A stretch of 64,000 nt of DNA, taken from NCBI GenBank assembly GCA_029820565.1, contig JALGUR010000009.1, positions 1,787 through 65,786 of the forward strand, written 5' to 3'. The position numbers and the translations under genes are program-made. Position 1 is the first letter of the stretch; each line of letters starts with the position of its first letter. This document shows positions 3,836-64,000 of this stretch, piece after piece. Origin of the DNA: Candidatus Zipacnadia bacterium (lineage in GTDB: Bacteria > Armatimonadota > Zipacnadia > Zipacnadales > Zipacnadaceae). The notes under the pieces were generated by a model. It was given only the letters and a program-made list of their open reading frames with translations. It made no database searches and was not told where the DNA came from.

Positions 3836-5826
3836 CATCCTATGCGATATGGCACCGAAGTGAAGAAGCCCACAATTATCCAAATAACACCGTTAAGCGT
3901 ATCCCCGATGATTAGGCCCAGAAAGAAAGGACGTAGCACCTCATAGGTCTTATGCCCGCCCCAGCGCACCACGGCGCTCTTTATCAACCAGGCCGAGAAT
4001 ATAGACAGGGATAACGCACAGATGAGCCAGTCGTCGGCAATCAGGAAACCAATAGGGTGGAGATTGAACCAGGTCAAATGGGTCCGCAGCCACACCAGGC
4101 CGACCATCAATAACGAGCCGCCGACAAAGTGAGATATAAGTATCGGGTCAATCTTCAGGGGATTCATCGTGGTGGCGCTAACCCAGGAATGAATAAGGTT
4201 CATATGTCTGGTCATAGGATAGTAGGACGCGAATCCCAGGGCTCCGCCCCGGGTGTAGTGCATCCACAGGGTAGCGACCACCGATATGGGAAAACCCAGC
4301 GCAATAGCACCAACACAAGCCTTCAGCAGCGAGCCGCGATGTAGACCAGTGGCATCGGAAATCTTGTAACCATTGAGCAAACTGGGCAGGAGGCACTCGG
4401 ACATCTCGAAGTGAAACGCGTAGTCACTCCATCTGGTAATTAGTAGGGATTGACGACTCCATATACTACTACCAGTCAGAGTGGCAATTACTTGGGTGAT
4501 GTAATAGGGGGGCAACACAAAGATAAACCCGGCTTGATTAACCATCCAGGACAATGCCACCAAGGTGGCTACGAACATAACCACAACTAATAGCCCCATG
4601 ACCAGGCTCCCGCCAAAGTGCGCCAGCCATCCGATCATTAGGGCAGTCCCAATTAGGAATAACACGACCATCGCTCGATAAGTCAGTGGCTCATCGGCAT
4701 CGTCAATTGAGCGGTCGCCGGTCAAAGCCTTGCGGAAGACATTGCCAAAGTGACCTCGCCCCAGCCAGACAAACAGGCTCACCAGGGTAACAGTAGCGCC
4801 GGCTTCTTCCAGTTGAGCGCCCACCCAGTTGGCCCCATACCGTAGACCGAACATGCCCAGAACCATCAGCCGCAACTTATGAAGCAGGAAGAAAAACCAA
4901 AGGCTGAAGGAGACCTCCGAGGGAATAAGATAGGCAAAGCCGACCATAGTCGGCCACAGACGCGCGCGCCACACGCCGGTGTAGGACAAGGGTGGCTCGG
5001 TAAACCTATAATCACTCCATCTCAAGGGAATCTCGGGGATGGCCGGATATAGAGCATGTAACCCGCCCAGAATATGGACTATACTCAGTATGATCACTGC
5101 CGCCCATACCAGCCTGTTACGCAAGAAACCATTAATTAGCTGACCGGGCGAGGGTGAGGCGGCAATTTGCACCGGGACCTGTACTACAGGAAATGTAAAT
5201 CTTTCCTGCTCCACCCAGCGGCGACGCAGCATCCCAGCCAGCCCAATCATCATCACCTGCATACCAGCGATATAGATAGCCCAAATGGCTACTGGTCGCA
5301 GCCACGGTTGAAAGGGAACAGCGCTTCCCAGCGGCAAACCTTCATAGAACCCTTCAATTGCCGCCGGGTCGCTTACTAATAAAGATTGAGTGCGGGGATC
5401 GGCTAATAACTCTCCCCAGTTATTCTCTGGCGAAGCGAAATAGGGGCCGTGCACCATGCTGGGGATATTCCAGCCTACTGGAGCGTTTCCCACGCTGGAA
5501 CTGGCGACAACTACGATCCACATTGCCGCCAATTGGGCAGGGGACAGTGTCCAGTGCGGGGCGAACTTGCGTAGAACCACATTTACTCCTAAAGTCATTA
5601 TCAGCAGTACACCAAAGGCGCCGACGGGGAAGAAAGTCTTACCAAGGGGGATGCTGAGGTTAGGGTTGCCCGCCATCAGGAAGGAATTAAAGGGAGTTGC
5701 GGCTAATACCGCAGCGCTGATCGCAAGGACGGCTACTAAGACTATCTTACCGATCCTTTCCCGTCTCTCACGGGGCAGGTTAGGGGCAGGAGTATGTTGT
5801 CTGGCTTGCATTAGGCTATGTCCCAA
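3832..5826 (-). CDS. Large polytopic integral membrane protein, function unknown
   Basis: 664-aa ORF with more than 12 hydrophobic helices throughout. It converges on the sialidase-like gene with a 4-nt overlap. The start could also be the internal MQARQ. Confidence 0.75.
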   Translation of the reverse strand: MGHSLMQARQHTPAPNLPRERRERIGKIVLVAVLAISAAVLAATPFNSFLMAGNPNLSIPLGKTFFPVGAFGVLLIMTLGVNVVLRKFAPHWTLSPAQLAAMWIVVVASSSVGNAPVGWNIPSMVHGPYFASPENNWGELLADPRTQSLLVSDPAAIEGFYEGLPLGSAVPFQPWLRPVAIWAIYIAGMQVMMIGLAGMLRRRWVEQERFTFPVVQVPVQIAASPSPGQLINGFLRNRLVWAAVIILSIVHILGGLHALYPAIPEIPLRWSDYRFTEPPLSYTGVWRARLWPTMVGFAYLIPSEVSFSLWFFFLLHKLRLMVLGMFGLRYGANWVGAQLEEAGATVTLVSLFVWLGRGHFGNVFRKALTGDRSIDDADEPLTYRAMVVLFLIGTALMIGWLAHFGGSLVMGLLVVVMFVATLVALSWMVNQAGFIFVLPPYYITQVIATLTGSSIWSRQSLLITRWSDYAFHFEMSECLLPSLLNGYKISDATGLHRGSLLKACVGAIALGFPISVVATLWMHYTRGGALGFASYYPMTRHMNLIHSWVSATTMNPLKIDPILISHFVGGSLLMVGLVWLRTHLTWFNLHPIGFLIADDWLICALSLSIFSAWLIKSAVVRWGGHKTYEVLRPFFLGLIIGDTLNGVIWIIVGFFTSVPYRIGC

Positions 5827-52876: not shown

Positions 52877-55800
52877 GTGAAGCCAGTGGCTAAACCAGGG
52901 AGAAAAAACTGCAAGCACCAAGCCGGTCAGGCCCTGTTGATTGCTGTGCTGATTATGATGGCTATCCTGCTGGTCGGGGCCTTGTTCGTCGCCATTGTCA
53001 ATTACAATCAACAGTCTTCGGTCCGCCACAGTGATATGGTCGCCGCCCAGGGTCTGGCCGAGGCGGGGATCCGGTACGCCGACTATATGCTCCAGTACAG
53101 CCCCGCCGGCGCCGACTGGCGCCCGCCGTTTGTGCCTGTCACGGCGATTGGTAGTGGTTACTACACCCAGCAAGAGATAGACCACGGCTGGTGCCCAGTA
53201 TTTAACACTGGCACCGGTGAATATGAGCGTTTGGGCTTCAGTCGGTATCCGAATCCGTTTGACCCCAGTGGCAACCTGGATATTGGCCGAGGGCACTTTT
53301 TCCTGCGCGTTACCTATGACCCTGACCCGCCCTATGAGCCGGCGCAACTGGACGACCCGGCGCATATCAATCCCGCCAATCCTGAGCCGGATCCACTGAG
53401 CAGGTACATAAGGATTGAGTCCATCGGTGTAGTGGCTGATGAAGGGTTTGTGTTCCGCCAGTTAGTGGCCTACAAGCCCATTGCCCTGACCGATTATCTA
53501 CTGTTCGTCACCGACCGCAGCCGCCGCGCCCAGCCCACTATCCTGGGCTACAACCCGTACTTTGATATGGATAATAGCGGCTCCTGGGGTGTAGCAGACT
53601 TCCTCTCCCCACAATGCCAATATACTAGTGGCCTTCTGGGCACTAGGTATACATGGCACGGTCCAATGCGTTTCAACACACCCGTGCAGCTCGAAGGTGG
53701 GGACGCGGGTCTGAACTTCATAAGTATGACCCCAGTCCGCGCACAGACTCAGGCCACACCACCCACCAGCGCGCCAGGACAACCGGAGGGGGGTGGTTAC
53801 CTGCGAGGCGATAGATTTGAGGCAGCACAAACAGTTAGCGGCAATGGAATTCTTGCCTCTACAGCTCTGACGGCTAATGCCTCGGCAGGGGCCACCCAGC
53901 TATACGTATATGGGGCTGGTGCATTCGATGTTGGAGACCAAGTCTGGATAGGGGACGCTCCCAACCAAGAGTACCTTGGTGGAATTGCCGCTATTGATGC
54001 GATGTTAGGCACCATTAGAGTAAGTAACCCCCTCGCGGCCGGGTATGCCACGGGGGATTCTGTTGAAATTCACAGCGGCCCGGTTCAACGCCTGCGCCCG
54101 CCTGACCTATTCGCCGAAGACCCGGCCACCGGCACCATGCGCTGGTATGCTCTGACTCGCGACTCAGGAGAGGTAGTATTGAACCCCAGTTCTGGCGAGA
54201 CGGTCAATACCGGCCGGTACGGTCACGGCCAAGGCATCTACATTGATAATGGCGGCGATATACAATTCGCCCATAACATTAACAGAGCAATGCAGGACTG
54301 GCTCCATAATCTCACCACTGGCAGTTCCTGGAATCAGGTCGGCGAGATGTATGAGCCGCCGGGCGTGGAGATTGAGCTATTCGCCACTGAGGCGGCGACG
54401 ATTGAAGACCCAAATGATACTGTAGATCAGCAATATGACATAGTCAATGACCCGAGCCCTGGCACTGCGATTGATAATGATTATACTGATGGTGAGATCC
54501 AAATATGGTGGCCTAATCACGTAATCGGCTCTGGCGAGCCGGGTATCCGGCTTGAGCGTACAGCCGGTGGTGACGGCGGGTATGGGGGGGGCCTGTGGTG
54601 TATCGCCGATCCGAATAATCCCAGCACCATCGGCGACACCACGCCCCAGACGAGAACAATGTATCTCGATTATCCACAGCCTGGCCACCAGGTCATCTTT
54701 GCCGAGGGCAATGTGCGCATCTCGGGGCGGCTGCCGCGACTGGATACGGCCAACGCGGGCAATGGCCGCTATAACCTGACGGTGGTCTCCGGCGGCACCA
54801 TTTATATTGACGGCCAACTGCTCTCGCCCCAAGACCAGTTCGGACGTGTCGTGACTGGCTCATCGGCTGCGACGCGCACCGGTGCGACCAACGACCAGGA
54901 CAATACTTACATCGCCCTGCTGGCCCGCGATTGCGTAGTGGTCAACCCCACGCTGCTGGTGCCGCAGACACAGGTAGCAGTAGGTGGAGCGACTGCCGAG
55001 GAAGATGACTTCGGATGGCATTGGACAACTACGCCTGCCGGTGCACCTATTGATGCCGTGAACAGCCGCTGGTATTTCGGCGCGAATCCGGACGACGCTG
55101 GGAATACAGTAAATCTGGTCGGATACCAGACAATGGGCGGATTTGCCACTCTGGCAAACGCCGTGATCCTCGGTGAGACTACACTCAACCTATCAACAGA
55201 TGTCAGCGATTGGCAGAACGGTGACGCGATCGCGATCACACCAGCCGCCAGCTGGCCCGACGCCAGCCAGCGGGTCGGGGGTATGACCGTCGCCAGTGCA
55301 ATCGGAACTATCCTAACCTTGCAGCTACCAGGCACCCCTATCGCCTTTTCGGCTGGCGCTTACGTTGAGAATCTCAGCCGACCTGACTGTACGGGCTTGA
55401 ATTTGGGAGCTTATAACCCAGGGAATGGTTGGCAGTGGTACGACTTCGACCAGGTGCAGACTACTCCTTCTGATGACCCCTTATTCCTAATTACGAGAGA
55501 CGCGCCCGGCGCGCCAGCAAACTGGTTCTGGGAAATGGATAGCCTATGGTTAACCGACCTCGCCTGGCCCTTGCTTGATGCCAGCAACGGTTACCTCGGC
55601 CTGTCCGGCGGGCAGCCCGGCGGGATGCTCAACTCGCTGTGGTTTAGGCTGCCCTCAATCACTGACATTCAAACCGCTAACGGCGGAAATGGCACAGTCC
55701 GACCTTATTGGCTAAAGAAGTTCAAGATTGAGGAGCTTGATAGTACTACCGATGAGCCGACCGGTGCCATTCATGCCAAGATAAATGCAGTGATGTATGC

Positions 55801-56167
55801 CGAGAATGGGTGCTTCTTCGTCATACCTGCTCCGTACTTCAAAGAGGACGAGACCGGTTCTAATGCGGAGCGCTTCCTGCGCTATAACTACGATATTGAG
55901 ATTCGGGGGGCTATCACCGAGAATTTCCATCCCGGGCCAGCGGCGGTGCGCGAGTGGCAGGAGAAGTGGGCTTGGCCGGACGGGGCTAACTGGAACAGCA
56001 TAAGATATGTCTATGACGAGACCGTACTAGCCGCCCGCGAGCAGCCGACGACCACGCTAAGCGGACCTGTGCGAAGCGCCAGTACCGTGCTGGCCACTGA
56101 TCAGGCCAATCTACCCAAACACCCGCTGCTGCCGGTCAGCCCGGATCTGATTTACTACGGCCAGTAA
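52877..56167 (+). CDS. Giant PilX-like N-terminal-helix protein (putative pilus tip/adhesin), 1096 aa
   Basis: The N-terminal QAGQALLIAVLIMMAILLVGALFVAIV resembles the PilX N-terminal helix (no Glu at +5). Sits in the minor-pilin position. The start may be GTG 52886. Confidence 0.7.
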   Translation: MKPVAKPGRKNCKHQAGQALLIAVLIMMAILLVGALFVAIVNYNQQSSVRHSDMVAAQGLAEAGIRYADYMLQYSPAGADWRPPFVPVTAIGSGYYTQQEIDHGWCPVFNTGTGEYERLGFSRYPNPFDPSGNLDIGRGHFFLRVTYDPDPPYEPAQLDDPAHINPANPEPDPLSRYIRIESIGVVADEGFVFRQLVAYKPIALTDYLLFVTDRSRRAQPTILGYNPYFDMDNSGSWGVADFLSPQCQYTSGLLGTRYTWHGPMRFNTPVQLEGGDAGLNFISMTPVRAQTQATPPTSAPGQPEGGGYLRGDRFEAAQTVSGNGILASTALTANASAGATQLYVYGAGAFDVGDQVWIGDAPNQEYLGGIAAIDAMLGTIRVSNPLAAGYATGDSVEIHSGPVQRLRPPDLFAEDPATGTMRWYALTRDSGEVVLNPSSGETVNTGRYGHGQGIYIDNGGDIQFAHNINRAMQDWLHNLTTGSSWNQVGEMYEPPGVEIELFATEAATIEDPNDTVDQQYDIVNDPSPGTAIDNDYTDGEIQIWWPNHVIGSGEPGIRLERTAGGDGGYGGGLWCIADPNNPSTIGDTTPQTRTMYLDYPQPGHQVIFAEGNVRISGRLPRLDTANAGNGRYNLTVVSGGTIYIDGQLLSPQDQFGRVVTGSSAATRTGATNDQDNTYIALLARDCVVVNPTLLVPQTQVAVGGATAEEDDFGWHWTTTPAGAPIDAVNSRWYFGANPDDAGNTVNLVGYQTMGGFATLANAVILGETTLNLSTDVSDWQNGDAIAITPAASWPDASQRVGGMTVASAIGTILTLQLPGTPIAFSAGAYVENLSRPDCTGLNLGAYNPGNGWQWYDFDQVQTTPSDDPLFLITRDAPGAPANWFWEMDSLWLTDLAWPLLDASNGYLGLSGGQPGGMLNSLWFRLPSITDIQTANGGNGTVRPYWLKKFKIEELDSTTDEPTGAIHAKINAVMYAENGCFFVIPAPYFKEDETGSNAERFLRYNYDIEIRGAITENFHPGPAAVREWQEKWAWPDGANWNSIRYVYDETVLAAREQPTTTLSGPVRSASTVLATDQANLPKHPLLPVSPDLIYYGQ

Positions 56168-56322
56168 CTGCGGCAAGGACAGCAACGGCAGCAAGGACAG
56201 TAACGACAGCAACGACAGCAAGGACAGCAGGAACAGCAACAGCAGCAACGACAGCAACAGCAGCAAGGACAGCAACGACTGTAACGGCAGTAACGGCAGG
56301 AGCGGCACAGAACGGCAACACA
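56168..56322 (+). repeat. T-depleted imperfect 9-nt/3-nt periodic tract
   Basis: Units such as aaggacagc, aacgacagc and aacagcagc repeated about 15 times. Only 4 T in about 150 nt on the + strand. Begins directly after the stop of the 1096-aa gene. Confidence 0.85.
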
Positions 56323-56416: not shown

Positions 56417-56445
56417 TTGACAAGATTCGCAATTTACGCTACACT
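56417..56445 (+). promoter_or_regulatory. Candidate sigma70-type promoter for pilM-pilQ
   Basis: TTGACA-17 nt-TACACT, 57 nt upstream of the pilM ATG. Confidence 0.55.
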
Positions 56446-56502
56446 GCAATAATTAAGTAAAGGCAGTCGCAATTATAGCCGACATTATAGGAGGAGCAAC
56501 CG

Positions 56503-57612
56503 ATGCCCAGAGGCGCGGCTCACGCACTGGGCCTAGACATAGGTACTCACGCAATCAAAGCAGTAGAGTTGCGCCGCACCGGTGAGGGTATTGAACTGGT
56601 TGGCACCCCGGCAGTGGTGGCTACTCCGCCGGGTAGTGTTAGCGACGGGGTCATAGTAGACGGCGGCCAGGTCTCCGAAGCATTGGCGCAGATGGTCAAG
56701 ACTTATGGGTTTACCACCCGCCAGGTGATCGTCTCAGTGGGGGGCGAGAGTTCTGTGGTGGTACGCATTGCGTCTATGCCCCGAATGGAGCCCAAAGAAC
56801 TGGACGACGCTATGCAGTGGGAGTTAGAACGGCAGGTCCCCTTCCCCGTAGATCAGGTGATATTCGACTACGAGGTCATTGATATCCCGGGACAGACCGG
56901 TGAAGACAATATAGACGTTTTCCTGGCGGTGGCCCAGGAAGATATGGTTGACGCCCACGTAGAGGCAATTATGGGCGCGAAGTTAACCCCGATTCATATT
57001 GATGTTGAGCCTTTAGCCATTGGCCGGGCCCTGGTGCATGCCTCAGACAATGGTTACCGCGACCAGACGGTACTACTGGTTCACATCGGGGCTAATAGCA
57101 CCGGAATATACATTGTGAGCAACGGCTGGATGAACTTTGTCCGCACTCTGCCCACGGCGGGTAGTGCCTTCACCGCTGCCATTAGTGAAAACATCTTGGG
57201 TGATGAGGAGCAAGCCGAGCGGGCCAAGCGCCAGTTTGCTGATTTGACCGAAGCGGCTACTGAAGAGTCAGAAGAGACTGGTGATGTGGCCCAGGCTCAG
57301 ACCGCTATCCAGGAGGCCATATCTGAGGCCTTATTTGATTTGAGCACCGAGGTCGGTCGGAGCTTAGAGTTTTATCGCCGCCAGCACCGCGATGCGCAAA
57401 TAAGTGCCATTCTTCTATGCGGAGGAAGTGCAGTAATTCCGGGGCTGGCTGAATTCATCCAGAATGAGACAGGAGTAACTACTGAGGTTGCTAATCCCTA
57501 CCAGCATCTAATTTGTGACACCCAACAAGTCTCGAAAAGTTATCTCGCCGATGTGGGGCCGGCTACTGTGGTAGCGGTGGGTCTGGCGATGCGAGATATG
57601 TTGGAAGACTAA
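56503..57612 (+). CDS. pilM: Type IV pilus assembly protein PilM (actin-like ATPase fold)
   Basis: LGLDIGTHAIKAVEL.., ..LLCGGSAVIPGL... 369 aa. AGGAGG RBS. Confidence 0.9.
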   Translation: MPRGAAHALGLDIGTHAIKAVELRRTGEGIELVGTPAVVATPPGSVSDGVIVDGGQVSEALAQMVKTYGFTTRQVIVSVGGESSVVVRIASMPRMEPKELDDAMQWELERQVPFPVDQVIFDYEVIDIPGQTGEDNIDVFLAVAQEDMVDAHVEAIMGAKLTPIHIDVEPLAIGRALVHASDNGYRDQTVLLVHIGANSTGIYIVSNGWMNFVRTLPTAGSAFTAAISENILGDEEQAERAKRQFADLTEAATEESEETGDVAQAQTAIQEAISEALFDLSTEVGRSLEFYRRQHRDAQISAILLCGGSAVIPGLAEFIQNETGVTTEVANPYQHLICDTQQVSKSYLADVGPATVVAVGLAMRDMLED

Positions 57613-57625
57613 AAGGAAGCCCAAA

Positions 57626-58528
57626 GTGCTGAAGATAGACCTGCTGCCGCGACAATTCGCGATTGCTCGCACTAATAAGAAGTGGATAGGAATATTTGCA
57701 GTTCTACTGGCTGTTGTTGTGCTCGGGTTCTTTATCTGGTTTGGCGGCATTGGGTCCCAGATTGAGAAGGTGCAGGCCGACGTAGATGAAGTTAAGCCTA
57801 TCGCCGACGAAGTGCGTGCCTTGCGCAGCGAGAAACAGTCCAAAGAAGCGGATCTGCAGCCCATAAAGGATAAGTTGCAGTTTATTGCCCAAGCGGATCG
57901 CAGTGTCTCGGTGTACTGGGACCGATTTCACGCGATTAACAAGTACATTTGGGACCGAGCCCAGGTCTCGGCTTTTACCATCACTCCGCCTGATACCGTG
58001 CAGTTTACCGTGACGATTCACGGGACGCAGGAAGCCGGTCGTTTCGTGCTCAACCTGCTGCGCTGTCCGGCGCTGACTAATATTAGTATATCAGGACTAC
58101 CCGCAGGCAAGTCGGTGGAAGGAGAAGGTGGCGTCACCGGACCAAGCCGCGGCGGTTTTGGTGCGCCTGGTATGCCGGGAAGACCGGGAGGTCCACCGCG
58201 GATGCCGGAAAGACCAGGAGGGCCAGCGGGCCCGGGGCCGATGGTACCCGGACCAATGGCACCACCAGGAGGGCCGTTCGGGTTAGGCGCACAGCCTGGT
58301 GTGACGACTGAGACTGCTGAGGTAGGTAGTCCCGAAGAGGAAATCATATTCCAGGTGACGGCTACCCTAACTGAACCGATAAATGCCCCCCAGCTGCCGG
58401 GGACGGCGGTAGCGGGTGGCATGGGTATGCCCGGGATGGGACCGCCCGGTATGGGACCACCGGGTATGGGACCACCGGGTATGGGACCACCGGGGCCAGG
58501 GGCCGAGGAACCAGAAGAGGACCTCTAA
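57626..58528 (+). CDS. pilN: PilN-like protein with Met/Gly/Pro-rich C-terminal tract
   Basis: MLKIDLLPRQF, then a transmembrane helix and coiled coil as in PilN. The tail is ..GMGMPGMGPPGMGPPGMGPPGMGPPGPG... Confidence 0.8.
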   Translation: MLKIDLLPRQFAIARTNKKWIGIFAVLLAVVVLGFFIWFGGIGSQIEKVQADVDEVKPIADEVRALRSEKQSKEADLQPIKDKLQFIAQADRSVSVYWDRFHAINKYIWDRAQVSAFTITPPDTVQFTVTIHGTQEAGRFVLNLLRCPALTNISISGLPAGKSVEGEGGVTGPSRGGFGAPGMPGRPGGPPRMPERPGGPAGPGPMVPGPMAPPGGPFGLGAQPGVTTETAEVGSPEEEIIFQVTATLTEPINAPQLPGTAVAGGMGMPGMGPPGMGPPGMGPPGMGPPGPGAEEPEEDL

Positions 58529-58636
58529 TCCCGTTTGAGTGAGTAGCGGTTGGCTGGAGAGATAAACAGTGACAAAGGTGGTAGAGAGCAAGACTTAGGG
58601 CTAAGACAGGGCCTCTAACTGCATAGGAAAACTAAT

Positions 58637-59392
58637 ATGGGTAGAATACCGCCTATAGCAATAATTATAGTGGGGGTGCTATTAATCATCGGGGTGAGTG
58701 CCGGTGCCTTCTTTGTGCTGATAAAACCGAAGAGGGCAGAGTTGGCTGAACTACAAGCCAAGCTGGAGGAGGAGCAGAAAGTAGCGGCGGAACTGGACAG
58801 CGCCAAAGATGAACTGCTCAAGATGACGAAGCGGTGGAAGAAGGCCCAAGACGATTTGGAAGAAGCCCGGGACACCCGCAGTATTCCCATCTCCTTCACC
58901 CAGCCCATAACGGCCATGGTCAGCCTGTGGCCGGAATATCGCAAGACATTGCCTGATAAGGTCACAGAGTTTGTGGAAAGCAGCGGCTGCACCATTACTT
59001 CAGGAGCTTCATTTCCCGCGCCTCCCAGTGTGCCGCCGCCCGCGCCGAGCAGCGGCTTTTTGCAGATACCCGAGGGCCAGGATATCACCTTAGCGGTGGA
59101 AGGATCACTGACTGAGGTAGAGAAACTGTACAGATCACTGCGCGATTTCCCCCGGGTAACGGTAGTGAGTAGCTTGTCATTGACCGGTGTAGATGATACA
59201 ATATCAGCACAACTGCCGCTGACGTTCTATCTATTAGTGGAGGTACCGGAGGGCGCAGCAGCGGCCCCTATGGGATTCGGACGAGGAGGAATGGGACCGC
59301 CCGGGATGGGACCGCCTATGCCACCGGGACCGCCCGGAATGGGACCGCCAATGCCACCGGGTCCGCCGGGCCCTGGATTTTCACCTCCGTAA
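58637..59392 (+). CDS. pilO: PilO-like protein with Met/Gly/Pro-rich C-terminal tract
   Basis: Transmembrane helix, then coiled coil (KPKRAELAELQAKLEEEQK), then an alpha/beta core. The tail is GMGPPGMGPPMPPGPPGMGPPMPPGPPGPGFSPP. Confidence 0.75.
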   Translation: MGRIPPIAIIIVGVLLIIGVSAGAFFVLIKPKRAELAELQAKLEEEQKVAAELDSAKDELLKMTKRWKKAQDDLEEARDTRSIPISFTQPITAMVSLWPEYRKTLPDKVTEFVESSGCTITSGASFPAPPSVPPPAPSSGFLQIPEGQDITLAVEGSLTEVEKLYRSLRDFPRVTVVSSLSLTGVDDTISAQLPLTFYLLVEVPEGAAAAPMGFGRGGMGPPGMGPPMPPGPPGMGPPMPPGPPGPGFSPP

Positions 59393-59447
59393 TGGCGGCG
59401 AGCAGGACGGCAAGTAAGACGGACAACCAGAGAGGAATTATCAGCCA

Positions 59448-60101
59448 GTGGACCGTCAACAGAAGGCTAAGATGATGGTAGTAGGCGGGGTCGGAGTGTT
59501 TGTGATAGCAATCGTAGTATTGCTATTGTTTGTGCTCCCGGCCACCCGGGAGGGTAGTCTTCCTCTCCAAGCACAACCAGCGCCCGGAGGTGGGGCGCCG
59601 ACAATGCCGGGGCCTCCTGGTATGCCTGGGCCTGGTATGCCTGGTATGGGAGGCTTTGGGATGGCTCCGCCAACAGTGCCTGAGGGAGTTAAGGGGGATC
59701 CTCTGGAGCCCTCACGACCTAATCCCTTTAAGCCGGTGGGCGTACTGGGCATAGAAGCGATAGAGGATTTTGTTACGCCAGCCACTAGATATGGGCCAGT
59801 TTGGAGTCGTATGCCTATTACTACTCGCGTCGGCTTTCCCCGACCCGAACGACCGGCGCGGCCGGCTCCGCCCGAGCCCCCGCCTCCCACGGCTAAGAAG
59901 TTCCTCCGTATCAGCGTTATTATGTGGAGCAAGGGTGTGCCCACGGCTAGCTACGAAACTGCTGAGGGCAAAATTGGGAGTATCCAACCAGGAGACTGGG
60001 TGGAGGAATGGCAGGTCGTGGAAATTGGTCAGGACTATGTTGTAGTCAAAAACCGTGATACCGGCGAGATACAGCGAGTGTTCTTAAAGGGCAAAGAGTG
60101 A
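59448..60101 (+). CDS. PilP-like protein (tentative) with Pro/Gly/Met-rich linker
   Basis: Transmembrane helix, then the linker GGGAPTMPGPPGMPGPGMPGMGGFGMAPP, then a small C-terminal beta domain (..IQPGDWVEEWQVVEIGQDYVVVKN..). Sits in the pilP position. Confidence 0.6.
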   Translation: MDRQQKAKMMVVGGVGVFVIAIVVLLLFVLPATREGSLPLQAQPAPGGGAPTMPGPPGMPGPGMPGMGGFGMAPPTVPEGVKGDPLEPSRPNPFKPVGVLGIEAIEDFVTPATRYGPVWSRMPITTRVGFPRPERPARPAPPEPPPPTAKKFLRISVIMWSKGVPTASYETAEGKIGSIQPGDWVEEWQVVEIGQDYVVVKNRDTGEIQRVFLKGKE

Positions 60102-60174
60102 ACTTAGGCGGCCCGGGGGTCGTCAGTGCGTATACCGACGTAGCGCTGCAAACCGGACGTAGAGACTATCGGAG

Positions 60175-61011
60175 GTGAGGACTGTGAGATGTACCAAATT
60201 GACAATAGCGTTGCTGGCGATGGGGTTGATATTGGCCCAAGGGCCAGTTGGGGCTGAGGGAGCTAACTTCCAGTGGGAGGGAGCCACCGTAAATCAGGCC
60301 TTGTCCGCCTTGAATCGTCAATTCCAGCTCAACTATTCCATAGCGGGCGATTTGGGCGAACGAAAGATCACTGCCTCTTTGACCAATGCTACCGCGGCCG
60401 AAGCGTTCCAGACCATTCTGGAGGCTAGTAATCTGGCGGCGGTCAATGATGGTGGCGTGTGGCGGATTCGGGAAAAGCCGGAGGGTGGCGCTATTGCGCA
60501 GCGGGGTATGCCTGGAGCACCAGGCCTGCCGCAGCCTATGATGGGGCCGGCGCAACCGGGATTTCCAAGTCGTCAACCACCGGTGCCGTTCCGCCAGCCG
60601 CCCGCGCAGGTGCAGCGGGGCCCCGGCGCAGAGGCGGAAGCCGCCGAAATCCCCGAAGAGTGGAATCCGGAGAACTGGGTGATGCGCATCATTCCCCTGA
60701 AGTTTATAAATCCGTATCTGGTGACGGACATATTTGGGGGTCAGACAGTCAGCGAAGAGTATTATAGCGGCGGTGGTGGTGGTCGTGGTGGCTATGGTGG
60801 GCGTGGCGGTTACGGTGGCCGCAGCGGTGGCTATGGTGGGCAGAGCGGTTACGGTGGCCGCAGCGGTGGCTATGGTGGGCAGAGCGGTTACGGTGGCCGT
60901 AGCGGTGGCTATGGTGGGCAGAGCAGTTACGGTGGCCGTAGCGGTGGCTATGGTGGGCAGAGCAGTTACGGTGGCGGCGGCTATAGTGGAGGCGGCTACC
61001 GCGGTTACTAA
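60175..61011 (+). CDS. Secreted secretin-N-terminal (N0/STN-like) paralog with Gly/Tyr/Arg/Ser-rich repeat tail
   Basis: Signal peptide. The domain ..ATVNQALSALNRQFQLNYSIAGDL..ITASLTNATAAEAFQTILEA.. is collinear with PilQ residues ..GDIVDVLRMLGRAADVDIVINEGV..MKLRDKTIEQALWLITQA... The tail is (GYGGRSGGYGGQS)n. The start is likely GTG 60184. Confidence 0.75.
   Translation: MRTVRCTKLTIALLAMGLILAQGPVGAEGANFQWEGATVNQALSALNRQFQLNYSIAGDLGERKITASLTNATAAEAFQTILEASNLAAVNDGGVWRIREKPEGGAIAQRGMPGAPGLPQPMMGPAQPGFPSRQPPVPFRQPPAQVQRGPGAEAEAAEIPEEWNPENWVMRIIPLKFINPYLVTDIFGGQTVSEEYYSGGGGGRGGYGGRGGYGGRSGGYGGQSGYGGRSGGYGGQSGYGGRSGGYGGQSSYGGRSGGYGGQSSYGGGGYSGGGYRGY
60808..60975 (+). repeat. Near-perfect 39-bp tandem repeat (about 4.3 units)
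   Basis: ggttacggtggccgcagcggtggctatggtgggcagagc is repeated head-to-tail, with only c/t and g/a third-position or first-position changes. Confidence 0.95.
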
Positions 61012-61031
61012 GGGAAGACTGCTGCAAAACC

Positions 61032-61056
61032 GGTAGGAGGGGCATCCTTGCCCCGA
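61032..61056 (+). repeat. REP-like element
   Basis: GTAGGAGGGGCA-tcct-TGCCCCgat, 21 nt after the stop of the upstream gene. Confidence 0.7.
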
Positions 61057-61241
61057 TACTTGTATAAGTGCGGATAGCCGAAGGTAGGCAGAATATCTTG
61101 CTAACAGGTTTCCAATTGCCTTTTGCAACAATCTCAAGTAAAGAGTTGACCGGTTAGTTATCAGGTTTAGTGGGTCTTAGGTATTTGGGTTATGGTGATA
61201 CATAAGTCGGCAGCCGGTAGCGTAACCAGGGAGGGTTAGTT

Positions 61242-62999
61242 ATGTTCAGGTCATCGCTTTGGCAATCAAAGTTTACCATTACACTCGTCATCGCGGCATT
61301 GATAGCAGTACTGGGCGTGGTGGGCCCAGCCAAGGCAGAGCAGCAGGCCGACCACCCACCAATCAACATTGACATCCGGGGCGGCGACATAGTTGATGTC
61401 CTGCGAATGCTGGGGCGAGCAGCGGATGTTGATATTGTAATCAATGAGGGCGTGGCGGGAGAGATCCCCAGTATGAAACTGCGGGATAAGACCATTGAGC
61501 AGGCTCTGTGGCTAATCACTCAGGCGCAGGGCTATCGTTGTTATCAGGTGGACGAGCGGACCTACGTTGTGTCAGTCGCACCGTTGACCGCTCCACGCCC
61601 TGGTCAGGCGGCACCAACTGAATTAACCTCGCCCTTTGAGGGACAGGGCACGCCAGTAGCCACCCCGCCGGCCCGTGACCAGACATTGCAACCACAGCCT
61701 TCGCCGGTGCTCACGGCGACTACCCCGCCGCCAGCCCCGGGCGTTAGTGCGCCTGAGCGTGGCAGTGTAGAGGTCGTCACTGAGAGGCTGCCACTAAAAT
61801 ACGAAGACCCGCGCGTGATTGCTCTGGCCTGCGGCGGTACGGTAGTGAGTGGGCGGATGTTCTCCCCGCGCGAATTACTGCCCGCCCGCCACAAGCCCTA
61901 TGGCAATATGTCGGGTCAACGTGCGGCTACGGCTCAGCCCTTTGCCGGTGACTTGGCCGCGCCTGGCGCTCCGGGATTGGGCGGCTGGGGCCAGATGTAT
62001 CCCGGTGGGGGAGGTCTGGGTGGTGGCTTAGGTGGCTACGGGGGCGGGCAACGTGGTATGGGCGGCTATGGAGGAGGAATGGGTGGGTACGGCGGAGCGA
62101 TGGGCGGCATGGGGGGGCGGTATGGTGGCGGTGGATACGGCGGTGGCTATGGTGGAGGAGGAGGTATGGGCATTATGTTGCCCGAAGGTATGATGCCTCC
62201 GGTGGCGCTCATGCAACAAAATGTGCTACTGGTCCACGGTACTCAGGAGGCTATTGACAAATTCCGCGAGATACTCGCCATTTTTGACAAACCGGCCAAA
62301 CAGGTAGAAATAGCCGCTAAATTCATCGAGATAGAGACCACGCAGGATAAAGCCTTCGGCATCGACTGGTTTGTTTCCAACGGCGCAACGGAGTTTTTCA
62401 ACTTGGGCTTCGCTCCGGGTGAAGGCATTAGTGTGGCCCGATTTAGGCGGGGACGGTTTGAAGCCGAGTTGCGCACGTTAATCAGCGAAGGACGAGCCCA
62501 AGTAATTAACGAGCCGCGCGTGACCACCCAGAATAATATGCCGGCTGAGGTGAACTTTTCCACTGAGATACCCTACTTTTATGCCACTATAACCTACAAT
62601 CAGTTCGGCCAGCGCGAAGTTGACTATGAAAGTGACACTGTCTCAGTAATGCAAGCCCTGTATGTAACCCCGAGAATCTCGGAGGACGACAGTATAGTTC
62701 TGGATCTACAGCCCGAGATTGATGACCAAGTGGGCACCGTGGTCGGCCCCAACGGCGAAACTTTGCCCATTATCAGTACGCAGACTGCCTACACACAGGT
62801 GCGGGTACCGGATGGCGACACCCTGGTCATCGGGGGCATGATCCGCAGAAATGAGACCCACAACATCCGGAAGACGCCCCTGCTGTCAGAGATTCCCATA
62901 ATCGGGGATTTGTTCAAATCCAAGAAAACTGCAATCCGCAACTCCGAACTGTTGATATTCGTTACCCCTCGTATTATCAGGGAGATACCGCGGCAATAG
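61242..62999 (+). CDS. pilQ: Type IV pilus secretin PilQ with internal Gly/Tyr/Met-rich insertion
   Basis: Signal peptide. Conserved C-terminal secretin domain (..VPDGDTLVIGGM.., ..TPLLSEIPIIGDLFKSK..ELLIFVTPRII). About 90 aa of GGLGGYGGGQRGMGGYGGGMGGYGGAMGGMGGRYGGGGYGG.. lie between the N0 and secretin domains. Confidence 0.9.
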   Translation: MFRSSLWQSKFTITLVIAALIAVLGVVGPAKAEQQADHPPINIDIRGGDIVDVLRMLGRAADVDIVINEGVAGEIPSMKLRDKTIEQALWLITQAQGYRCYQVDERTYVVSVAPLTAPRPGQAAPTELTSPFEGQGTPVATPPARDQTLQPQPSPVLTATTPPPAPGVSAPERGSVEVVTERLPLKYEDPRVIALACGGTVVSGRMFSPRELLPARHKPYGNMSGQRAATAQPFAGDLAAPGAPGLGGWGQMYPGGGGLGGGLGGYGGGQRGMGGYGGGMGGYGGAMGGMGGRYGGGGYGGGYGGGGGMGIMLPEGMMPPVALMQQNVLLVHGTQEAIDKFREILAIFDKPAKQVEIAAKFIEIETTQDKAFGIDWFVSNGATEFFNLGFAPGEGISVARFRRGRFEAELRTLISEGRAQVINEPRVTTQNNMPAEVNFSTEIPYFYATITYNQFGQREVDYESDTVSVMQALYVTPRISEDDSIVLDLQPEIDDQVGTVVGPNGETLPIISTQTAYTQVRVPDGDTLVIGGMIRRNETHNIRKTPLLSEIPIIGDLFKSKKTAIRNSELLIFVTPRIIREIPRQ

Positions 63000-63076: not shown

Positions 63077-64000
63077 ATGGTGGTGGCTGATTCACTGCAC
63101 TTCTATACCGCCGGCGAATCACATGGGCCGCGTCTGCTGGCCATAATAGAGGGCCTTCCGGCGGGCGTCCCGGTTGCGACCGCGTTTATTGACCAACAAC
63201 TCCGCCGCCGCCAGAGCGGATACGGCCGTGGGGCCCGAATGGACATAGAACACGACCAGGCCGCGGTGGTCAGTGGCGTGCGCCACGGGTACAGCCTGGG
63301 CACACCCTTGGGACTGGTTATTGAGAACCGCGATTGGCCCAACTGGGAACAGGAGATGTCTCCTCAGCCACCTCCGGAGGATTTCGTCAGCCAGCGTCGG
63401 GTAACCACTCCTCGTCCGGGCCATGCCGACCTGGCCGGGGCGGCCAAGTTCGGCCACCGGGATATGCGCAATGTCCTGGAGCGCGCCAGTGCCCGCGAGA
63501 CCGCCGCCCGCGTGGCGGTCGGAGCAGTTTGTCAGCAATTATTGGCTCAATTTGACATGAGCATACGCAGTTGCGTAGTAAACATCGGGGGCATCCAAGC
63601 CTCGGCGCCGGCGCAACCTGATGAGGATTTCTTCGCTACAGTGGAGGCCAGCGAGGTGCGTTGTGGCGATCCCCAAGCGGCGGCCGGGATGCGCGAGGTC
63701 ATTGATAAGGCCCGCCGGGACGGGGATAGCCTGGGCGGTATTTTCCGAGTCTACGGCTTTGCGGTCCCACCGGGGCTGGGCACAATGGCCACTTGGCAGC
63801 AACGGCTGGATAGCCGGCTGGCTGCCGCCGTGATGAGCATTCCGGCCATTAAGAGTGTAGAAATAGGCCTGGGCCGCCAGGTGGCCAACTGTCCTGGCTC
63901 TCAGGTCCACGATCCTATCGAGTTTGACGGGGAGCGCAGTGCCTGGCCTTTTGTGCGCCCGACCAATAATGCCGGCGGTGTGGAGGGAGGAATGTCCAAC
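63077..64000 (+). CDS. aroC: Chorismate synthase, 3'-truncated by the window edge
   Basis: Not in the ORF track because there is no stop in the window. The translation ..LHFYTAGESHGPRLLAIIEGLPAGV..RRRQSGYGRGARM..RPGHADLAG..ERASARETAARV.. is canonical AroC. The start is ATG 63077 or GTG 63083, after AGGAG. Confidence 0.9.
   Translation, partial: MVVADSLHFYTAGESHGPRLLAIIEGLPAGVPVATAFIDQQLRRRQSGYGRGARMDIEHDQAAVVSGVRHGYSLGTPLGLVIENRDWPNWEQEMSPQPPPEDFVSQRRVTTPRPGHADLAGAAKFGHRDMRNVLERASARETAARVAVGAVCQQLLAQFDMSIRSCVVNIGGIQASAPAQPDEDFFATVEASEVRCGDPQAAAGMREVIDKARRDGDSLGGIFRVYGFAVPPGLGTMATWQQRLDSRLAAAVMSIPAIKSVEIGLGRQVANCPGSQVHDPIEFDGERSAWPFVRPTNNAGGVEGGMSN

Follow-up and report, generated by a model that had tools for sequence, protein, structure and literature searches.

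The stretch of DNA analysed here (the window) comprises 64,000 nucleotides (nt) of contig JALGUR010000009.1 from a Candidatus Zipacnadia bacterium of the phylum Armatimonadota, and its + strand carries a complete retractile type IVa pilus cluster between ~41.2 kb and 63 kb. Five consecutive genes of this cluster, encoding PilN, PilO, a PilP-like protein, a truncated PilQ paralog and the secretin PilQ, contain six low-complexity segments. Comparison with related operons identifies the system as a clade-wide Armatimonadota variant of the type IVa machine, in which each periplasmic component has disordered segments at fixed positions. A preliminary description of this DNA had listed the same five open reading frames (ORFs) and quoted peptide strings from their tracts; every frame and every string is present at the positions it gave. 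The genes and tracts are as follows (hhalign values refer to family profiles, pLDDT to the per-residue confidence of AlphaFold models; aa, amino acids).

57626 to 58528, + strand: pilN, 300 aa (hhalign against canonical PilN 98.3%, E=1.8e-14)
58106 to 58321, + strand: PilN internal Gly/Pro/Met tract (residues 161-232; pLDDT below 50 for 163-230)
58382 to 58525, + strand: PilN C-terminal tail (residues 253-300), (GMGPP)n and then the acidic tip AEEPEEDL; period-15 repeat, disordered in the AlphaFold model
58637 to 59392, + strand: pilO, 251 aa (hhalign against canonical PilO 98.6%, E=5.8e-16)
59249 to 59389, + strand: PilO C-terminal Gly/Pro/Met tail (residues 205-251)
59448 to 60101, + strand: pilP-like gene, 217 aa (hhalign against canonical PilP 63.7%, E=6.7e-5, 49 columns)
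59547 to 59687, + strand: PilP juxtamembrane Gly/Pro/Met tract (residues 34-80), between the transmembrane anchor and the SRPNPF motif
60175 to 61011, + strand: 278-aa paralog of the PilQ N-terminal half (Pfam STN, 3.7e-6)
60742 to 61008, + strand: paralog C-terminal tail (residues 190-278), (GYGGRSGGYGGQS)n with a terminal Tyr; period-39 repeat, 96% match
61242 to 62999, + strand: pilQ, secretin of 585 aa (Pfam Secretin PF00263, 1.3e-42)
61851 to 62183, + strand: PilQ N3-loop insert (residues 204-314), Gly/Tyr/Met/Arg-rich, between alpha1 (190-196) and beta2 (317-323)

Identity of the five proteins

Gene content, gene order and predicted folds place the system in the type IVa pilus family. 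Since single-sequence family searches were weak for PilN, PilO and PilP, we built profiles from 11-13 orthologs and compared them by hhalign with canonical PilN, PilO and PilP profiles from outgroup operons. The resulting matches bear out the earlier assignments of PilN, which had no match in a single-sequence Pfam search, and of PilO, whose Pfam match is weak (9e-4, under the cut-off) and whose place directly after pilN is conserved; PilO also has the transmembrane helix, coiled coil and core domain of its family. PilN opens with a short cytoplasmic N-terminus that begins MLKIDLLPR; residues 13-105 form a transmembrane helix and coiled coil, and the ferredoxin-like, predicted periplasmic core takes up residues 113-156 and strand 239-248. 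The elements of its AlphaFold model are H13-105, E113-120, E124-132, H134-145, E150-156 and E239-248, the last strand with a pLDDT of 93. The MLKIDLLPR sequence is nearly invariant in PilN homologs (L2, I4, D5, L6, L7 and P8 are invariant in A2) and is presumably an INLLP-type PilM-binding motif.

The PilP assignment is moderately supported, as its 64% profile match covers the C-terminal beta-domain only, and matches to TIGR03021 (E=0.062) and GspC (E=0.037) both fall below their cut-offs. The protein has a transmembrane anchor, a conserved '...PSRPNPF' motif and a C-terminal beta-domain, in a conserved gene order. Its N-terminus, MDRQQKAKMMVVGGVGVFVIAIVVLLLFVLPATREG, has no Cys and hence no lipobox, so we read it as a transmembrane anchor and not as a lipoprotein.

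PilQ is identified both by its Secretin domain and by Vibrio cholerae PilQ as best match in sequence and fold (PDB profile 6W6M, 1.8e-67; Foldseek 6w6m_A, 2.5e-16). Against NCBIfam TIGR02515 it scores 197.1 bits, under the trusted cut-off of 284.35, and matches in three pieces because of its insert and its divergent N-terminus. AMIN peptidoglycan-binding domains are typical of proteobacterial PilQ but not universal. None is present here, in agreement with the preliminary description: Pfam finds no AMIN match in PilQ, and the model passes from the signal peptide straight into N0.

Positions and predicted disorder of the tracts

The signal peptides and transmembrane helices in the sequences, together with the homology to PilN and PilO, would place all tracts in the periplasm. 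AlphaFold models of PilQ and PilN assign the tracts a pLDDT of ~30-50, consistent with the disorder proposed earlier. In PilN, the C-terminal tract first described is present, but a second, internal one (~161-232) had been overlooked. Because the confident strand 239-248 follows the disordered residues 163-230, this internal tract interrupts the ferredoxin-like core in its last loop. The GMGPP motif of the PilN tail recurs in the PilO tail, with only 2-4 of 8 third codon positions matching.

PilQ is laid out as a signal peptide, N0 (40-112), a Pro-rich linker, a split N3 domain and the secretin core (354-579). N0 is modelled with a pLDDT above 90 and matches the PilQ N0 structure 4AR0 at 2.3e-13, and the Pro-rich linker has low confidence. 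Beyond it, the model (32 homologs) shows beta178-184, alpha190-196, beta317-323, beta328-334 and alpha335-348. The pieces 178-202 and 317-348 align to V. cholerae N3, so that the beta-alpha-beta-beta-alpha fold is split by a 106-residue insert (205-310, pLDDT ~30). The PilQ tract is thus real, but it does not lie between N0 and the secretin core as previously described; it sits inside the N3-type domain, in an alpha1-beta2 loop of ~110 residues versus ~12 aa in V. cholerae PilQ. Since InvG aligns from residue 264 directly after the tract, we place the insert at the InvG N3 variable loop (217-267). That loop is disordered in other or isolated secretins and is thought to form the periplasmic constriction of the closed state; when a needle occupies the lumen, it threads outward or moves aside (PMC6155069).

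In the DNA, the tracts take the form of short tandem repeats with periods of 15, 33, 39 and 21. The length of the PilQ tract recurs in a contig assembled independently, whose PilQ matches at 583/585 residues in a gap-free alignment; for this tract we therefore reject an assembly artefact.

Specificity and conservation

Only these five of the ~50 genes of the window reach 20-25 Gly/Met/Pro residues (or at least 17 Gly/Tyr) per 25 residues in a composition scan, all other long ORFs peaking at 12 or fewer. Across the window and nine related loci, at least 30 low-complexity residues occur in 33 of 36 pilN-pilQ block genes versus 8 of 116 others (Fisher p=2e-22).

We then compared the operons of 13 relatives, all with the same six-gene order followed by aroC and aroK/aroB. 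The six segments were delimited by conserved flanking anchors, which avoids the circularity of composition-based detection; the latter was dropped, having overlooked the acidic Met-rich tails of loci L085, L002 and L082. The Fimbriimonadales locus L091 starts at a contig edge, so that knowledge of this order is confined to PilQ tracts (P0116, L030). Every operon that has the gene has its segment or segments, each of 28-126 residues (11-13 operons). The anchor-defined lengths are:

PilN internal segment: 28-122 aa, 11/11 orthologs
PilN tail: 39-103 aa
PilO tail: 36-95 aa
PilP segment: 40-96 aa
Paralog tail: 64-94 aa
PilQ loop: 76-126 aa

Wider searches gave the same picture for individual proteins. 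A Gly-rich insert occupies the same PilQ position in 32/32 aligned homologs, down to 26% identity, and a strict criterion for Gly richness there selects 73 of 120 PilQ homologs; essentially every PilQ homolog of the clade has a tract where these sequences align. Both PilN tracts occur in 17 of 18 additional PilN homologs. Among public sequences, those nearest to this PilQ carry the names Armatimonadota, Armatimonadia, Zipacnadales or Fimbriimonadales. Canonical PilMNOPQ systems lack such segments, as the preliminary description had stated: we counted zero tract residues in ~30 outgroup operons, among them Pseudomonas, Elusimicrobia, Omnitrophota, Desulfobacteraceae and Clostridia. These outgroup loci came from a PilQ-alignment genome scan on one generic secretin motif and are mostly non-Armatimonadota. 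Within Armatimonadota, no long tract was found in a second secretin (1063 aa) in the metagenome-assembled genome (MAG) of locus L081, and no tract in two other non-PilQ secretins.

The preliminary description had proposed close relatives as a test of its reading. They keep the tracts at the same positions down to ~26-36% PilQ identity, and systems of the characterised type do not have them, so neither outcome that it had set against that reading was found. The feature is coordinated across five proteins and apparently undescribed: our literature search found no description of coordinated PilN/O/P/Q tracts, with subscription journals thinly covered, so that absence is unproven.

The truncated PilQ paralog

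The fourth gene of the set encodes a protein that had been described as a secretin-N paralog. The paralogy is confirmed and its scope is wider, covering the whole N-terminal half of PilQ and ending inside the Gly tract: the paralog family aligns end to end with PilQ residues 1-314 (family-versus-family hhalign 99.8%, E=1.1e-28). The protein consists of a signal peptide, N0/STN, a Pro-rich linker, a beta-alpha element (RIIPLKF...DIFGG, which aligns with RLPLKY...ACGG of PilQ) and a Gly/Tyr/Arg/Ser tail. It is present in 13/13 operons and in 30 representative clusters. A word-indexed search with its folded part gave 3 close relatives and was replaced by synteny plus an exhaustive HMMER search, which returned 55; all 30 that cover the FGG element (30/30) have a low-complexity tail of 39-94 residues.

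The terminal residue of the paralog is aromatic (Tyr, Phe or Trp) in 15/16 and in 20/30 sequences (P about 2e-12); in the window it is encoded by the last codon, 61006-61008. This ending presumably resembles C-terminal recognition signals such as the beta-signals of outer-membrane proteins or the ligands of PDZ proteases. We considered the gene as a frameshifted or split pilQ pseudogene and rejected this: the gene comes with a signal peptide and a stop codon of its own, every operon keeps it, and its aromatic C-terminus is conserved.

The Gly/Tyr repeat of the paralog gene also creates a spurious 323-aa antisense ORF at 60166-61137 (- strand), and in locus L081 (9659-9907) the public gene call 'VVGVAGTVAMV...' runs in the wrong frame over the paralog repeat. 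Such spurious longer ORFs are an annotation hazard that hides the paralog in MAGs. Since the tracts break family models and mislead gene callers, pilus operons are under-annotated in Armatimonadota MAGs; here, PilN and PilP have no Pfam match and PilQ falls below the TIGR02515 cut-off.

Two chemical classes of tracts

The tracts of the inner-membrane side (PilN, PilO, PilP) and of the outer-membrane side (paralog, PilQ) differ in composition:

Met: PilN/O/P 8.5%, paralog plus PilQ 1.7% (p=1.7e-8)
Aromatic residues: PilN/O/P 1.4%, paralog plus PilQ 11.2% (p=3.9e-12)
Net charge per residue: PilN/O/P -0.050, paralog plus PilQ +0.043, positive in 24/26 (p=1.5e-8)

The spacers between these residues may change, with Asp/Glu in place of Gly/Pro on the inner-membrane side (EEEMMEPG, DDGMPDDMP) and Ser/Asn in place of Gly on the outer-membrane side (SSSRSSSRSSY). 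Across lineages, two things persist: disorder, and a sticker typical of the class, namely Met for the inner-membrane side and Tyr/Phe/Trp plus Arg for the outer-membrane side. Stickers follow one another closely, at a median distance of 3-4 residues. The preliminary description had compared the tracts to FG-nucleoporins. FG motifs are absent: Phe makes up ~1% of the outer-membrane-side tracts of the window, Tyr, Arg and Met recur, and GGF units occur in some lineages only. The outer-membrane-side tracts do follow a grammar of Tyr/Arg stickers and Gly/Ser/Asn spacers.

Met makes up 5-19% of the inner-membrane side in 11/13 genomes, even where Asp/Glu replaces Gly/Pro. The exception in a deep lineage is locus L083, with 0% Met, a Phe-bearing PilP tract (GGFPGQ) and PilN/PilO tails rich in Ala/Thr/Gly. 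Such persistence would suit a chemical role for Met, as a Cu(I)/Ag(I) sink, as an antioxidant repairable by methionine sulfoxide reductase (Msr), or in a redox-switchable assembly like the Met-rich domain of yeast Pbp1. So would its ~tenfold enrichment over the expectation from base composition and the MxxM, MxxxM and MxM spacings that occur. However, the tracts contain no His or Cys, and genomes differ in Met spacing, which ranges from 1 to 5 residues (GMGPP, GMPG, GMDPGM, MGMGMG, EEEMME) and so gives no fixed chelating geometry. L083 keeps its tracts in PilN, PilO and PilP without any Met, the outer-membrane-side tracts are Met-poor, and there is no reason to confine a sink to pilus proteins. 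We consider Met chemistry very unlikely. Of the metal or redox sink first suggested, what holds is that Met is the most persistent feature of the inner-membrane side; the lack of His/Cys, the variable spacing and L083 speak against the sink itself.

On the outer-membrane side, the paralog tails range widely, with Gly at 6-76%, Ser+Asn up to 79%, aromatic residues at 2-24%, Arg+Lys at 0-21% and Met at about 0. The Arg/Gly/Tyr tail and the PilQ loop could in principle capture incoming DNA in the manner of RGG boxes, given the resemblance of the tails to the RGG/YGG tails of RNA-binding proteins and the slightly basic character of this side. PilQ-type secretins serve DNA uptake in other bacteria. 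Against nucleic-acid capture, Arg/Lys content is low, variable and nil in some genomes, the net charge is only about +0.04 per residue, and no competence genes are seen within the window; we regard it as extremely improbable.

Signs of selection

In the window, Met makes up 9.8% and Tyr 11.5% of their respective tracts, where the base composition of the DNA predicts ~1%, and G+C content at third codon positions (GC3) is not raised. Since both residues use AT-rich codons, we rejected pure GC-driven slippage as the origin of the tracts.

The wording of the tracts is genome-specific. Different proteins of one genome share more 4-mers (0.258) than orthologs between genomes do (0.135; p=4.5e-6), and each genome has its own dialect: GMGPP in the window, GMDPGM in L082, GGMPG in L084 and GGFPGQ in L083. 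The PilN and PilO tips are near-identical within each genome. In the window, L084, L087, L088 and L089, identical tract peptides are encoded with essentially random third codon positions (matches at 2/8 for GMGPPGMGPP and at 5/11 for PKLRRGGEGGG at the PilN and PilO termini), and the match is therefore maintained at the protein level.

In locus L081 (6105-8907), pilN, pilO and pilP share DNA-identical tract stretches of 42-54 nt (GPGSVRPPGPGGVGGMPG), the longest 54/54 nt. This indicates recent gene conversion or copying among the three adjacent genes.

The fixed positions, the specificity, the two classes and the co-evolution together lead us to conclude that the tracts are selected and are not slippage noise. 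A neutral origin, in which slippage-prone repeats expand in permissive loops and termini and are tolerated, would draw on the tandem-repeat nature of the tract DNA, on the fast shifts in length and wording even among relatives of ~60-70% identity, and on the recent inter-gene copying in L081. It is hard to reconcile with six positions kept fixed to ~26-36% PilQ identity while the other genes and other secretins of these genomes are free of tracts, or with conserved compositional classes, AT-rich sticker codons, saturated synonymous sites and an aromatic paralog end. We judge it highly improbable.

Some tracts contain short arrays of one unit, (GMGPP)x4 and its PilO variants in the window, with units that differ between genomes. 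We presume a resemblance of these units to elastin xPGxG, flagelliform GPGGx and abductin Gly/Met/Phe sequences. The tracts might accordingly act as entropic springs of the elastin, abductin or resilin type, damping retraction force where an AMIN anchor is missing. The window's (PPGMG)n, by its presumed likeness, fits the xPGxG pentapeptide form, units such as GGMPG, GPGGx and GGFGGMG recur in relatives, and the PilT retraction ATPase is present while the AMIN domain is not. To be loaded, a spring has to be fixed at both ends; most of these segments are tails with a free end or loops that return to their own domain. In addition, the pentapeptide regularity is not conserved, some lineages have E/D+Met or S/N+Tyr instead, and there is no sign of cross-linking, so a damper seems to us quite unlikely. 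A collagen-like (Gly-X-Y)n structure was rejected, as the repeat unit has five residues (GMGPP) and places Gly out of three-residue register.

The tracts could also be passive flexible spacers or entropic bristles, which would provide reach and slack over a wide or variable periplasm, or keep neighbours off, with no cohesion. True linkers from an anchor to a domain do occur, namely the juxtamembrane segment of PilP and the Pro-rich stretches of PilQ and the paralog, and tract lengths vary freely among relatives. The Thermus protein PilW, an analogue of PilP, is likewise Gly/Pro-rich and flexible, and has been read as an adaptation to a ~70 nm periplasm (PMC13039148). However, the PilN, PilO and paralog tails are free at their C-termini and the PilN and PilQ loops re-enter the same domain, so these are not linkers. 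Nor would spacers predict the strict partition of Met versus Tyr/Arg, the tenfold enrichment of stickers with AT-rich codons, the matched PilN/PilO termini with scrambled synonymous sites or the conserved terminal aromatic of the paralog. We therefore regard passive spacing as unlikely, while still giving it some weight.

Genomic setting

The remainder of the cluster and the start of the block comprise:

Pilus cluster, + strand: PilB-like ATPase (T2SSE, 5.7e-134, plus an MshEN domain)
Pilus cluster, + strand: PilT-like retraction ATPase (T2SSE, 6.3e-50)
Pilus cluster, + strand: PilC (T2SSF), the prepilin peptidase PilD and several pilin-like proteins
56419 to 56447, + strand: candidate sigma-70-like promoter of the pilM-N-O-P-paralog-Q block, TTGACA-N17-TACACT as read from the sequence
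56489, + strand: Shine-Dalgarno AGGAGG, read from the sequence, with the pilM ATG at 56503
56503 to 57612, + strand: pilM, 369 aa, cytoplasmic actin-like ring protein (Pfam PilM_2, 3.4e-59)

The pilM product of this genome has no low-complexity tract. In distant relatives PilM is enlarged, to 451 aa in L082 (5155-6510), 793 aa in L083 (2731-5112) and 454 aa in L084 (4701-6065), by a long low-complexity insert. This insert is rich in Ala/Pro/Asp and acidic in L082 and L083, and L084 has an Ala/Pro-rich one. Disorder therefore extends to the cytoplasmic ring in some lineages, with other chemistry.

The gene directly upstream of pilM (52877-56167) encodes a protein of 1096 aa, which matches no Pfam family and whose N-terminal segment is hydrophobic and pilin-like. 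Relatives carry versions of 1400-2060 aa at the same place, and the protein is possibly a tip adhesin or a minor pilin of giant size. A degenerate 9-nt tandem array (CAGCAACGG/CAGCAAGGA, ~14 copies, 78% match; 56168-56310) starts right after the stop codon of this gene, ~110 nt before the promoter-like site of pilM; since it has stops in all three + frames, it appears to be non-coding.

The chorismate synthase gene (aroC) lies directly 3' of pilQ. From 63077-64000 of the window and from L081-L090, the order is kept as pilQ, aroC, aroK/aroB, a PASTA-domain protein, an ECF sigma factor and a zf-HC2 anti-sigma factor, the last two of which may be regulatory. A pilQ-aroK-aroB linkage is known in proteobacteria as well. 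In L084 (16715-19294), a VIT/VWA-domain protein encoded a few genes 3' of pilQ has tracts in that locus's own dialect (GGGGGGMGGYGGGGYGG, GPGGMPGG); VIT/VWA genes occupy the same position in L087 and L089. The L084 protein is a possible additional partner of the system.

A proposed role for the tracts

The descriptive finding is solid. As the most likely role we tentatively propose a flexible, weakly self-associating collar or gasket of the sticker-and-spacer kind, a reading that we think plausible though short of probable. It is supported by the conservation, specificity and disorder of the tracts, their two classes, their co-evolution, the dense sticker spacing and the position of the N3 loop. 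PilQ channels leak unless plugged, and in Pseudomonas aeruginosa the plug of PilQ is formed by SlkA/SlkB (PMC13392014).

With ~12-14 copies per protein, one machine would hold ~5,000-5,800 disordered residues around the pilus path, or roughly ~60-150 mg/mL in a 20-25 nm cylinder under our assumed stoichiometry and geometry. In the periplasmic vestibule beneath the secretin gate, the PilQ N3 loops and the tails of the paralog would form a lining or filling, and this mass could serve as a compliant gasket that lets the moving pilus pass and limits leakage. A second layer, based on Met, would arise from the matched PilN/PilO tails and the segment of PilP; it could couple the alignment complex to the secretin side in the absence of rigid domain contacts, PilQ having no AMIN anchor. 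As for the earlier idea that the tracts take the place of peptidoglycan-anchoring domains, they could conceivably do so, but little speaks for it. For the gate that was likewise suggested, the location of the PilQ insert at the N3 variable loop, proposed in InvG to make up a periplasmic constriction, lends indirect support, and the tracts may have such a role.

A stronger form of the collar proposal is an obligatory, co-evolving, two-layer disordered phase in the periplasm, with a Met layer at the inner membrane and a Tyr/Arg layer at the secretin and paralog, acting as a nuclear-pore-style seal and compliant coupling. This we hold to be rather unlikely, if a possibility worth stating.

Several points weigh against the collar. 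Self-association of the tracts is a supposition, the lumen-facing orientation of the N3 insert is taken by analogy from InvG, and the stoichiometry and volume in the estimate above are assumptions. The acidity of the inner-membrane side and the basicity of the outer-membrane side are not matched genome by genome (Spearman 0.31, p=0.31), and without such per-genome charge compensation a direct electrostatic partnership of the two classes is not supported. Motifs common to both classes are almost lacking (0.046), and the two may therefore not interact at all. Part of the within-genome similarity stems from gene conversion and not from selection, as the 54/54 nt identity in L081 implies. Finally, composition drifts widely, from Gly to Ser/Asn or Asp/Glu and to the absence of Met in L083, which fits a loose physical role but equally well weak constraint.

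Comparison with known systems

Secretin machines are usually described as stacks of folded rings. Two questions about them are how they seal around a moving filament and how they couple the inner-membrane platform to the outer-membrane pore across a variable periplasm. This lineage's solution spans five proteins: each protomer set contributes hundreds of disordered residues that are conserved, split into two chemistries and subject to co-evolution. If the tracts are cohesive, they would extend the sticker-and-spacer physics of nuclear pores and cytoplasmic condensates to the bacterial periplasm, and would offer a natural system for disordered layers that seal or mechanically buffer a moving shaft. 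If the two-layer phase is true, it would be the first periplasmic condensate or gel to form a structural part of a secretion or pilus machine.

The system resembles the type IVa PilMNOPQ machines of P. aeruginosa, Myxococcus xanthus and V. cholerae in its gene order, followed by aroC and aroK/aroB, in its PilB/PilT/PilC/PilD set and in its PilN/PilO folds, and its PilQ shares N0, N3 and the secretin core with V. cholerae PilQ (6W6M). Unlike canonical PilMNOPQ, it has six disordered segments (28-126 residues), no AMIN domain, a transmembrane-anchored PilP and an extra, truncated paralog of the PilQ N-terminal half. The PilQ insert occupies the same position as the InvG N3 variable loop by profile alignment. 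Whereas the InvG loop has a unique sequence and orders on needle binding, the loop here is two to three times longer and Gly-rich with Tyr/Met/Arg stickers, and a separate protein, the paralog, bears the same kind of tract.

In purpose, the proposed gasket would be a functional analogue of SlkA/SlkB, which form a mobile, poorly ordered mass in the PilQ vestibule of P. aeruginosa; this mass maintains the barrier of the outer membrane and gives way when the pilus assembles (PMC13392014). SlkA and SlkB are separate proteins, to which no homology was detected here, though no direct test of it was made; the proposed mass would be built into PilQ and the paralog as low-complexity chains. Thermus thermophilus PilW offers a further parallel, as a Gly/Pro-rich flexible periplasmic connector in the type IV pilus of a non-proteobacterial diderm (PMC13039148); it is a single protein acting as a length adaptor, whereas here five proteins are coordinated, with Met versus Tyr/Arg classes and free tails. 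Mets-motif segments and MDH repeats of the CopA/PcoA type, which bind Cu(I) in copper-handling proteins and have conserved MxxM/MxM spacing, usually along with His or Asp ligands, differ from the tracts, which have no His/Cys and no conserved spacing.

Outside bacterial envelopes, the closest likeness is to FUS/hnRNP low-complexity domains, with Gly/Ser/Asn spacers, dense Tyr/Arg, few aliphatic residues and predicted disorder, as a match of composition only. The anchoring of many copies around a channel presumably recalls the geometry of FG-nucleoporin and FUS-type assemblies. Unlike FG-nucleoporins, the segments described here are bacterial and periplasmic, have no FG motifs, and face a rigid filament as cargo rather than soluble receptors.

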